DNA from: Promethearchaeota archaeon | GTDB taxonomy: Archaea > Asgardarchaeota > Hermodarchaeia > Hermodarchaeales > Hermodarchaeaceae | Direction of reading: 5' to 3' | NCBI GenBank assembly: GCA_048938385.1 | Contig: JBHLMG010000001.1 | Span: 256,001 to 320,000, forward strand | Length of the DNA: 64,000 nucleotides | Shown here: positions 4,270 through 6,144 of the stretch, piece after piece | Numbering within the stretch: position 1 is the first letter of the stretch | Layout of the letters: the number at the start of each line of letters is the position of its first letter | Position numbers and translations under genes: made by a program | The notes under the pieces: model-generated | Told to the model about the DNA's origin: nothing | What the model saw: only the letters and a program-made list of their open reading frames with translations | The model's database searches: none

Positions 4270-5754
4270 CTAATGCTGTAGTGCTGTTGTAAGGAACTCT
4301 ACCAGTTTGCTAATTTTAACAAGCTGTTCGTCACCGCTTTTCATGTCACGGATCTTAACTGCGTTCTCTTCCAATTCTCGGGGTCCAATGATGGCTGCAA
4401 GTGGAATCTGTCGTTTACTTGCATCTTCTAGATGTTTAGTCAGTGACCATGAAAATCCGTTGAAAATCGTCCGGATTTTGGATGTTCGCAGCTGAGTTGC
4501 GATATCTCGACAAGCTGTTAATTGCTTCTTGGACACCGGAGCTAAGTAGACATCAGCTTGTGGAACCGGTGGTGGAAATAACTTTTTTTCCTCTGCAATT
4601 TCTAAAATTACGGTTTCACCAAAACCAAATCCTGTCCCAGGTAGTCGCTGTCCCCCAAATATTCCCACGAGATCATCATAGCGACCACCTCCGGCAATTG
4701 CCCTGGGTATCCCTTTTCCTTGATCCCATGCCTCGAAAACGATGCCTGTGTAGTAATCGAGACCCCGAGCAATTCCTGCATCGAATTCGCAACAATCCTC
4801 AATACCCAATTCTTCTAATTGTTTGGCTAGTTGTTTCAAAGGTACAAGATTTTTCTTAGTAGACTCATCAAGAGCAGGTTTGTTCATGGCTTCAAGGAAC
4901 TCTCTTGGCGTTCCCCGAATGCCTGAGAAATCAACGAGCTGTTCAGCTGCTTGCTTAGGAACCTTCAACTTCTTCAGTCTAGTAATTAGCGCTTCACGCT
5001 GAAGTTCTGGAAGCGAGGTCTTTAACTCTTCGACTTGCCTTGAACGAGGAAGTTTGAGATCTACTTGTTGTTTTCCAGCATAGAAATGCCGAAGTTTCAA
5101 CGCCCTGTCTTCTGCCTTCTTCCGTGGCATACCATCCTTTGTGAGTTTATCGATAATGGCTTCTTGTAAGAGTTTTTCGCGCTGATCCAAGACGCGAATG
5201 ATTTCGATGTAGTTGGTCAGTCCGAGTGATTCGATATAACTTTGGATTAAGCGACGGTCATTAATTCGAATTACAAAGTCTTTCACTGTGAAACCAAGGC
5301 TCAGGATGATAGCAGCTAATACATTAATGACTTCAGCATCTGCGGCAACATCTTCTGTTCCTAAGATATCGACATTCAATTGCCAAAATTCCTTGACGCG
5401 ACCTCGTTGAAGGGTCTCATCCCGGAAAACCCGTGAAATTGAAAACCATCGAATGGGGCGTGGGTAATATTGCTGCTGCGCGGACAGCATACGTGCAAGA
5501 GAGGGTGTTGTTTCAGGACGAAGAACAAGCTGTCGTTTCTTTCGATCAGTCACTTTGAAGGTTTCATCTACTAGCGAAGGTCCTGATTTAAGCTGATACA
5601 GTTCTATTGGCTCGACAATCGGGCACTCGTATTCGATGTAACCAAATAGCTTGGGAATTTCACGAAAGGCTTGAAGTATCCGATCAACCTTTTGATAGAG
5701 TTCTGGATAATAATCTCGGAATCCACCAATCGCCAGTTCTTTCCCGCGTTTCAT
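4270..5754 (-). CDS. hisS: Histidine--tRNA ligase (start moved to ATG 5754; the longer ORF runs into the tRNA)
   Basis: GGFRDYYP, LRPETT, FRDE..QRGR..EFWQ, RGLDYYTG, GGGRYD and an anticodon-binding domain. Confidence 0.97.
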   Translation of the reverse strand: MKRGKELAIGGFRDYYPELYQKVDRILQAFREIPKLFGYIEYECPIVEPIELYQLKSGPSLVDETFKVTDRKKRQLVLRPETTPSLARMLSAQQQYYPRPIRWFSISRVFRDETLQRGRVKEFWQLNVDILGTEDVAADAEVINVLAAIILSLGFTVKDFVIRINDRRLIQSYIESLGLTNYIEIIRVLDQREKLLQEAIIDKLTKDGMPRKKAEDRALKLRHFYAGKQQVDLKLPRSRQVEELKTSLPELQREALITRLKKLKVPKQAAEQLVDFSGIRGTPREFLEAMNKPALDESTKKNLVPLKQLAKQLEELGIEDCCEFDAGIARGLDYYTGIVFEAWDQGKGIPRAIAGGGRYDDLVGIFGGQRLPGTGFGFGETVILEIAEEKKLFPPPVPQADVYLAPVSKKQLTACRDIATQLRTSKIRTIFNGFSWSLTKHLEDASKRQIPLAAIIGPRELEENAVKIRDMKSGDEQLVKISKLVEFLTTALQH

Positions 5755-5806
5755 CGTTGTCAACTCGCCAGCCAATCTCGTAAATATCCACATTGACATT
5801 GAAAAA

Positions 5807-5962
5807 TGGTGCCGGGACAGGGATTCGAACCCCGACCTAAAGCTTTCCGTATCCCAATTACAATGGGATTCCACAGGCTTCAATGCTGCCATTGCGCCTG
5901 GGCGTACATTACCAGTTTACACCATCGGGAGCCAATCAATTCTTGATCGGCCTTATCCCGGC
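5807..5962 (-). tRNA. tRNA-His(GUG) with three introns (5924-5954 at 8/9; 5892-5916 at 15/16; 5845-5870 at 37/38), CCA encoded
   Basis: Acceptor GCCGGGA/TCCCGGC, T-arm CGGGG-TTCGAAT-CCCTG, anticodon arm GAAGC-CTGTGGA-GCTTT; each intron has a 3-4-3 BHB motif; spliced product is 74 nt. Confidence 0.92.
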
Positions 5963-6144
5963 ACGGTGACCCGGCACGAGGGATTGTTGAGACGAACTCT
6001 TCCACAAAAACCTTTCCTATCTTTCCCTTCAAGTCAACCGTTGTAGGACTTTCTAGTACGGTGCTTGTTGCTGCTGAGGTGGGTGAAAACAGCGAAGCGG
6101 GTTCTGCTTCATCGATATTGAAACGATGACCCTGTCAGGCAAGG

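Follow-up and report, generated by a model that had tools for sequence, protein, structure and literature searches.

A tRNA-His gene of Hermodarchaeia with three predicted introns and a leader copy of its own acceptor strand

Introduction

How can an intron be removed from a precursor tRNA when the motif that marks it for cutting is built from bases of the acceptor stem, the strongest helix of the tRNA? This question is raised by a tRNA-His(GUG) gene on the minus strand of a 64-kb stretch of DNA (the window) from a genome of Hermodarchaeia, an Asgard lineage. The gene is predicted to be interrupted by three introns of the bulge-helix-bulge (BHB) type, the first of which lies between tRNA positions 8 and 9, and it is preceded by a second copy of the 5' strand of its own acceptor stem. 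A three-intron tRNA-His with a helper leader was the best explanation of the locus overall, and we hold it with good confidence.

The presence of several introns in one tRNA gene is already known. Up to three closely spaced BHB or relaxed-BHB introns per tRNA gene, found by iterative detection, have been described in Thermoproteales (PMC4090602, PMC4033280, PMC8450103), and Asgard tRNA genes with two to five interruptions, with many D-arm ones missed by tRNAscan-SE, were published in 2024 and 2026 (PMC11291895; bioRxiv 10.64898/2026.10.13.758758). The first-pass annotation of the window had regarded multi-intron tRNAs as best known from Thermoproteales. This is established for that order, but the host in the present case belongs to the Hermodarchaeia, and heavily interrupted Asgard tRNAs are already on record. 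It is the 8/9 intron, the leader helper and the odd His identity that lift this case above routine annotation.

Gene model and predicted splicing

The elements of the gene are as follows.

5962-5807, minus strand: whole gene, tRNA-His(GUG), three BHB introns and four exons
5962-5955, minus strand: exon 1, GCCGGGAT, tRNA positions 1-8, invariant in 16 genes
5954-5924, minus strand: intron 1, 31 nt, at 8/9, junction seen in the intron-less alleles of L030, L032 and L033
5923-5917, minus strand: exon 2, GGTGTAA, a 7-nt micro-exon, positions 9-15
5916-5892, minus strand: intron 2, 25 nt, at 15/16, present in 16 of 16 complete genes
5891-5871, minus strand: exon 3, 21 nt, positions 16-37 (remainder of the D-arm, 5' strand of the anticodon stem, anticodon GUG)
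5870-5845, minus strand: intron 3, 26 nt, at the canonical site 37/38, absent at this junction in L030-L032
5844-5807, minus strand: exon 4, 38 nt with encoded CCA, positions 38-76
5802-5806, minus strand: TTTTT run directly 3' of the CCA, kept within the genus

In-silico splicing after the second base of each bulge gave a 74-nt product, which ARAGORN called as tRNA-His(gtg) with a full cloverleaf. The spliced tRNA carries the GUG anticodon, U8, A14, G18 and G19, the T-loop UUCGAAU and a 7-bp acceptor stem. G9, A14, A15 and the 5' strand of the D-stem (G10-U13) come from exon 2; exon 4 completes the anticodon stem with its 3' strand and contributes a variable loop of 4 nt, the T-arm, the 3' half of the acceptor stem, A73 and CCA. 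The first-pass annotation had proposed three BHB introns at 8/9, 15/16 and 37/38 with the helices and bulges given below, a clean 74-nt cloverleaf after cutting behind the second bulge nucleotide, and a second exon of only GGTGTAA; all of these elements were recovered on the minus strand. The TTTTT run is likely a transcription stop.

A 4-bp central helix with two 3-nt bulges on opposite strands was found in all three introns. In intron 1, C3-G6 pair with CCCG at 5929-5926 (CGGG/CCCG), the bulges are A7 U8↓A and A U↓G9 (ATA/ATG; the arrow marks the cut), and the inner hairpin spans 5953-5930. In intron 2, GUGU (5922-5919) pairs with GCGC (5897-5894) between the bulges A A↓A and A A↓U16 (AAA/AAT), and the inner helix is CUGG/CCAG. 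Intron 3 has CUGU/ACGG as its central helix, G G↓A and A A↓A38 (GGA/AAA) as bulges and AUCCCA/UGGGAU as inner hairpin. The central helices were 96-100% paired across 12 aligned genes, and inner helices of 10, 4 and 6 bp give introns 1, 2 and 3, respectively, a flanking helix. The outer helix of intron 3 is the anticodon stem; introns 1 and 2 have a weak outer helix or none (relaxed helix-bulge-helix, HBh', type). The outer helix that the first BHB (BHB1) could form through GUGU consists of one G-C and three G-U pairs, and of two pairs only in L029. We regard it as very probable that the segment 5962-5807 is a functional single-copy tRNA-His(GUG) gene of Hermodarchaeia with three BHB introns.

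Detection and copy number

No tRNA was found by ARAGORN in the whole window, with or without its intron mode, and the unspliced gene was missed by the Rfam tRNA model at the gathering score, as the first-pass annotation had foreseen for standard annotators. A permissive Rfam scan gave one tRNA match of 17.9 bits (cut-off 29), in which the 5' part was skipped and the D-arm was wrongly assigned to GGCGCAA. This heptamer, the last 7 nt of intron 2 (5892-5898, minus strand), nearly repeats exon 2 (GGTGTAA). The look-alike misleads covariance-model alignment, as this match shows, and could lead to mis-annotation as a two-intron gene.

In the genome assembly (2.48 Mb, 51 contigs, 89.8% complete), 23 tRNA-model matches and 31 ARAGORN calls were obtained, with many isotypes missing. 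No His was present among these genome-wide calls, and no second tRNA-His candidate was found in the assembly; in particular, a separate intact tRNA-His elsewhere, which the first-pass annotation had named as contrary evidence, was looked for there and none was found. Among the sequencing runs, no RNA data carrying the locus were found, and the three runs listed (Logan contigs, type unspecified) contained 0.20-0.27 of the sampled words. The gene call fills in the otherwise missing tRNA-His of Hermodarchaeia genomes, and the case shows what standard annotators overlook in Asgard metagenome-assembled genomes.

Splice junctions and covariation in relatives

The gene was found in 16 of 18 other sampled genomes of the family, comprising 12 of the 14 other genomes of the genus and all four of a sister genus. 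All genus members with the gene carry three introns. The sister genus varies: L030 and L032 have intron 2 only, L031 has introns 1 and 2, and L033 has introns 2 and 3. Intron 1 is missing exactly at 8/9 in L030, L032 and L033, where GCCGGGAT is directly followed by GGTGTAA, and intron 3 is missing exactly at 37/38 in L030, L031 and L032, where CTGTGG is directly followed by AGCTTT. Since these natural alleles are identical to the predicted ligation products, the 8/9 and 37/38 junctions are settled. In addition, intron 1 ends with A or C, not T, in most genes, and therefore only the 8/9 register retains U8.

The exons are invariant while the introns diverge and co-vary across 16 genomes of two genera. 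When the 12 aligned genes were scored against a structure made up of the leader helix described below, the three BHBs, the anticodon stem and the T stem, 95.4% of the cells were paired, compared with 36-45% in slid controls. Compensatory changes were observed in 11 pairs, and none of 500 shuffles reached the observed covariation. Double changes occurred in nine of the ten pairs of the inner hairpin of intron 1 and in two pairs of the intron 3 hairpin. The helices of intron 2 never vary across the aligned genes and are uninformative either way. Exon 2 is nearly invariant; in L030, the A that forms the first intron base is replaced by G. Short-query BLAST of the introns and leader against their own genome gave only 15-18-nt matches at the chance level, and thus there is no sign of intron transposition.

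It could be argued that the gene is a decaying pseudogene or relic and that a working tRNA-His lies in the approximately 10% of the genome that is unassembled, given that the assembly is 89.8% complete and that the tRNA has neither G-1 nor C73. However, exon invariance together with divergence and covariation of the introns in 16 genomes of two genera, the conserved linkage to hisS, and the lack of any other His candidate, of this or of the canonical type, in the genomes of the family speak against decay. This possibility was rejected on these grounds as scarcely credible.

The predicted junction of intron 2 is supported by the BHB geometry, by the pairing of GUGU with GCAU in four of four D-stem pairs, and by the substitution pattern. 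No intron-2-less allele, and no tRNA-His of this type outside the family, was found in a DNA search and a mismatch pattern search, each of 201 Asgard genomes. In L029 and L030, G is replaced by A on the intron side of the intron 2 central helix, which keeps a U-A pair; the same change would break the D-stem if this segment were exon, and 5898-5892 was therefore read as intron. The same evidence bears on a gene with two introns only, in which a 56-nt insert (5954-5899) follows U8 and the D-arm starts from GGCGCAA (5898-5892). GGCGCAA differs from exon 2 by only two bases, and it is the segment picked by both the sub-threshold Rfam alignment and the mismatch pattern search. On inspection of the sequence, however, no BHB could be drawn for a 56-nt intron, and the D-stem would contain a C11-A24 mismatch where GUGU gives four of four pairs. 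Furthermore, L029 and L030 read GGCACAA at this site; the intron helix survives this change, whereas two pairs of the D-stem would be lost. GGTGTAA, for its part, is essentially invariant. The absence of a BHB, the D-stem mismatch and GGCACAA in L029 and L030 led us to reject the two-intron gene, which is highly improbable.

A copy of the acceptor strand in the leader

Upstream of the true 5' end, the leader reads GTGCCGGGT-CACC-GT-GCCGGGAT and thus contains a second copy of the 5' strand of the acceptor stem. Three upstream elements were distinguished.

5970-5977, minus strand: leader copy (decoy) GTGCCGGG, the acceptor 5' strand plus its -2/-1 bases, complementary to the 3' end CCCGGCAC
5965-5968, minus strand: leader CACC, complementary to exon 2 GGUG (G9-G12)
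6002-6015, minus strand: promoter-like box AAAGGTTTTTGTGG, approximately 25 nt upstream of the leader copy

The partner of the copy, CCCGGCAC, corresponds to positions 67-72, A73 and C74, with which the copy forms an 8-bp Watson-Crick run. This run was the longest among the 30 tRNA leaders of the genome, the others reaching 6 bp at most, and a run of 8 bp was reached by 61 of 20000 shuffles of the leader (P ~0.003). The copy is present in all 13 genes that contain intron 1, including L031 of the sister genus, in which the intron sequence is unrelated, and in none of the three genes that lack intron 1. The only substitutions in the copy are C to U at copy position 3, by which a G-U pair is kept. 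Similarly, the CACT, TACC and CATC variants of the leader CACC all keep the pairing with exon 2 by one-sided changes. The sister genomes with and without introns constitute a natural experiment, in which the junctions of introns 1 and 3 are fixed and intron 1 and the copy appear and disappear together. No publication describing a leader copy of the acceptor strand was found.

The box is conserved as GGAAAG(C/G)TTTTTGTG in all Hermodarchaeia loci. It was taken to be a putative B-recognition element (BRE)/TATA element, from which the transcription start was deduced. The distance of approximately 25 nt between the copy and the box equals that between the tRNA 5' end and the box in relatives without intron 1. 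The arrangement suggests that the leader copy may be an old exon 1, retained after an insertion or duplication that brought in intron 1 together with a new exon 1.

The upstream copy might even be the true exon 1, in which case an intron of approximately 46 nt containing the downstream copy would be removed. The copy stands at the ancestral distance from the box, its CGGG could pair with the intron CCCG, and in L029 the product would be identical. In most genes, however, the resulting tRNA would carry C8, where U8 is nearly universal, and its position 7 would vary between G, U and A. The GCCGGGAT downstream, by contrast, is invariant in 16 of 16 genes, and the co-varying inner hairpin abuts the bulge of the downstream copy and not that of the upstream copy. 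On account of C8, the variable position 7 and the invariance of the downstream copy, this assignment was rejected as most improbable.

Folding of the precursor with and without the leader

The central helix of BHB1 uses acceptor bases 3-6 and consequently competes with the 7-bp acceptor stem. Minimum-free-energy (MFE) folds were tabulated for the 13 genes with intron 1. With a 40-nt leader, the 3' strand paired with the copy in 12 of 13 folds, and bases 3-6 paired with the intron CCCG in 11 of 13. Of the folds lacking the leader, 11 of 13 showed the normal acceptor stem, which abolishes the BHB1 central helix. An unguided RNAalifold prediction returned the same leader helix together with a (G)CACC/GGUG(U) helix (columns 25-32 with 75-79), and the CACC:GGUG pairing was also predicted by MFE folding. 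The energies calculated for the window's own precursor were as follows.

Copy paired, BHB1 central helix and hairpin, CACC:GGUG, BHB3: -59.4 kcal/mol
Copy paired, all three BHBs: -58.3 kcal/mol
Copy paired, BHB1 with the GUGU outer helix, BHB3: -52.3 kcal/mol
True acceptor stem, no BHB1 central helix: -49.6 kcal/mol
Neither acceptor stem nor copy paired: -41.3 kcal/mol

The calculated energies indicate that the copy tips the balance toward the splice-competent fold. The leader may act as a helper that makes intron 1 spliceable, a reading toward which we lean somewhat. If this is true, a leader that serves as placeholder and splint explains how BHB introns can persist where they compete with the strongest helix of the tRNA, and pre-tRNA processing would gain a cis element of a new class.

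The first-pass annotation had assigned GTGT of exon 2 to three mutually exclusive pairings, namely the BHB1 outer helix, the BHB2 central helix and the mature D-stem. This is formally right, but the BHB1 outer helix is weak and is disfavoured by the calculated energy. An outer helix of BHB1 through GUGU was discarded as a candidate: it can be formed, but at a cost of 6 kcal/mol relative to leaving it unformed. Moreover, an ordered refolding pathway is not a necessity as had been claimed, in that a conformer containing the three BHBs together (-58.3 kcal/mol) matches the alternatives in stability. A refolding conflict does exist; it lies between the BHB1 central helix and the 7-bp acceptor stem, with the leader copy as its apparent solution, a connection that the first-pass annotation had not drawn.

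A second leader copy in tRNA-Leu(CAA)

The same genome contains a multi-intron tRNA-Leu(CAA) gene (contig C46, minus strand, approximately 240 nt, ending in CCCCCGCACCA), which also has an 8/9 intron. The central helix of this intron is GGGG/CCCU, and its bulges are G U↓U and A A↓A. At a distance of 40 nt upstream there is a leader copy, GUGCGGGGG, with 9 bp of pairing to the gene's own 3' end, and the folds with and without the leader behave as for tRNA-His. The tRNA-Leu(CAA) gene is an independent second case of a leader copy in the same genome. The first-pass annotation had doubted that 8/9 is a common intron site. The site is indeed not named in review lists of non-canonical positions (3/4, 20/21, 22/23, 25/26, 29/30, 30/31, 45/46, 53/54, 56/57, 59/60 'etc.'), the full Thermoproteales catalogue being outside this comparison; within the present genome, however, it recurs in tRNA-Leu(CAA). 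No paper naming an 8/9 tRNA intron was found in a literature comparison to which full catalogues did not belong.

These data also bear on the view that the leader copy is a neutral scar of a 5'-end duplication at the gain of intron 1, with no role in splicing. The copy lies approximately 25 nt after the box, where the tRNA 5' end sits in relatives without intron 1, and resembles a leftover exon 1; moreover, all of its variation is one-sided, and no more than one or two events underlie its presence alongside intron 1. A scar, however, would be expected to decay, whereas the eight bases have stayed complementary to the 3' strand across two genera whose intron 1 is otherwise unrelated, with changes of C to U only. 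The three genes without intron 1 are also without the copy, the tRNA-Leu of the same genome has the same arrangement in an unrelated sequence, and the energies show BHB1 losing to the acceptor stem when the copy is absent. We consider a neutral scar rather unlikely, and a helper role of the leader is preferred.

tRNA-His identity

Position -1 is U (T at 5963; A in L029) and position 73 is A (5810) in 16 of 16 genes. G-1 is thus not encoded and C73 is not present, which departs from the tRNA-His identity set. This departure does not argue against the assignment to His, which is based on the anticodon. Thg1 (PF04446) was not found in 19 genomes of the family (72-91% complete). In two other Asgard families (L075, L080), a pattern search detected intron-less tRNA-His with encoded G-1 and C73; the spacing of this search was one base wide of the Hermodarchaeia-type genes and hence blind to them.

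Archaeal tRNA-His typically has G-1:C73, and A73 has been treated as a eukaryotic innovation, the change being placed in early eukaryotes (PMC3245924). The Hermodarchaeia gene shares the A73 discriminator with eukaryotic tRNA-His (PMC3245924), and shares with the G-1-less tRNA-His of a clade of alpha-proteobacteria and of Acanthamoeba and Trypanosoma (PMC4338351, PMC3561963) an unencoded G-1 with no Thg1 detected. Unlike in those systems, the host is an archaeon. These archaeal genes may point to a His identity system that lacks G-1 or is altered in some other way. The combination of A73, no G-1 and no Thg1 bears on when the eukaryotic tRNA-His identity set arose.

Splicing enzymes and a proposed pathway

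The genome encodes two EndA paralogs. The 186-aa paralog, from the region of 325049-325303 on contig C23, matched the catalytic alpha subunit of Aeropyrum pernix EndA (3P1Z_B, E 6e-46). No gap interrupts the alignment in the Crenarchaea-specific loop, where K44 and R46 each face a Lys. The second paralog (204 aa), from the region of 190407-190667 on the same contig, is beta-like, and RtcB is also present. The Crenarchaea-specific loop and K44 are known to give EndA a broad substrate range (PMC3241643), and Asgard archaea have been reported to possess the alpha/beta EndA type carrying this loop (PMC5829648). By its gene content, the host encodes a predicted broad-specificity alpha/beta EndA and a ligase; the broad-specificity endonuclease that the first-pass annotation had postulated is matched by the alpha subunit with the Crenarchaea-specific loop and key Lys and by the beta-like paralog.

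In the pathway that we propose, transcription would start just upstream of the copy, giving a precursor that begins approximately 20 nt upstream of the tRNA, and would stop at the T-run after CCA. The spare strand GUGCCGGG would pair with the 3' acceptor strand and CACC with exon 2 GGUG, so that the copy and CACC would hold both partners during the removal of intron 1 and the true strand would be free for BHB1. The hairpin of exon 1 and intron 1 would then present BHB1, and BHB3 would form on the anticodon stem. The alpha/beta EndA would cut in the 3-nt bulges and RtcB would join the exons. Once intron 1 is gone, the true strand would displace the copy, and RNase P would remove the leader. GUGU would pair first with GCGC in BHB2 and finally, after the loss of intron 2, with GCAU in the D-stem.

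Since all three BHBs coexist in one computed conformer, a strict order of splicing is not required. On the other hand, simultaneous cutting of both introns that flank exon 2 would leave the 7-nt exon held on short helices only, and stepwise removal with the leader as splint is therefore plausible. A strictly ordered pathway is likewise plausible as a model.

Evidence weighed and comparison with known systems

Several points weigh against a three-intron tRNA-His whose leader assists splicing. In L025 (1238-1267), a 1-nt deletion in the copy (GTGCC-GGG) changes the MFE fold and abolishes the pairing between the copy and the 3' strand. The 3' strand is invariant, and the leader pairing shows one-sided changes with no true covariation. 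On the HisRS (histidyl-tRNA synthetase) tree, the sister genus grouped as a single clade whose inner branches were not resolved; the joint loss of intron 1 and the copy accordingly took place once or twice, and the 13-versus-3 co-occurrence counts as one or two events. Neither proteins nor co-transcriptional folding enter the MFE energies. For intron 2, no allele without the intron was found, and the inner helix is invariant. With A73 and no encoded G-1, the tRNA departs from the usual archaeal His identity set, and no Thg1 was found. Finally, what was observed comprises the gene model, two junctions, the covariation, the enzymes and a leader copy that is present, conserved and linked in its occurrence to intron 1; we infer the actual splicing, the precursor ends, the leader function and the order of events. 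As a separate observation, the L025 deletion may be a natural weak allele or an assembly error.

The gene resembles the published Asgard tRNAs in its small BHB-type introns at canonical and D-arm sites, in having several of them per gene (up to five there), and in the alpha/beta EndA of its host. Unlike here, the two Asgard papers name no Hermodarchaeia, tRNA-His, 8/9 site or leader element; the splicing there, too, is a predicted one. With Thermoproteales such as Pyrobaculum calidifontis it shares a heterotetrameric EndA with the Crenarchaea-specific loop, and close introns whose motifs cannot all show at once. The phylum is different, however, and the Hermodarchaeia introns have no genomic paralogs, whereas transposing intron families occur in Thermoproteales. 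The leader is also reminiscent of split and permuted tRNAs (Nanoarchaeum equitans, Caldivirga, Thermofilum; PMC3218864, PMC3978253), in which sequence outside the mature tRNA pairs with tRNA parts and builds or stabilises the EndA substrate. In those tRNAs, the extra helices join separate transcripts or permuted ends and are part of the BHB, whereas in Hermodarchaeia a leader in cis mimics the acceptor strand opposite the 3' strand.

In its widest form, the proposal would be that such leaders are a general, undescribed cis stand-in strand and splint for the 3' acceptor strand and the micro-exon, enabling introns at sites like 8/9, and that, linked to this, a whole Asgard family works with altered tRNA-His rules (eukaryote-like A73, no G-1, no Thg1, a divergent HisRS alongside). 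We put this forward tentatively, its chances being slightly short of even.

Neighbouring hisS gene

The gene for histidyl-tRNA synthetase follows tRNA-His on the same strand, 52 nt downstream.

4270-5754, minus strand: hisS, histidyl-tRNA synthetase, 494 aa (Pfam tRNA-synt_His, E 1e-49)

Among PDB matches, the closest solved relatives of this HisRS were 1WU7 and then 3HRK/3HRI. The conserved start of hisS is the ATG at 5754. The longest open reading frame (540 aa, ATG at 5892) overlaps the tRNA, and its start at 5892 is spurious. Automatic hisS gene calls that extend over 5755-5892 (minus strand) may overlap and hide the tRNA. L027 and L029 were deposited as Odinarchaeota and Thorarchaeota, yet their hisS and tRNA-His loci are squarely those of Hermodarchaeia, and both look like mislabelled bins. 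tRNA-His lies directly upstream of hisS in all 15 other Hermodarchaeia loci fetched (16 of 16 including the window), and the pairing of a tRNA gene with that of its cognate synthetase may be a habit of this lineage.

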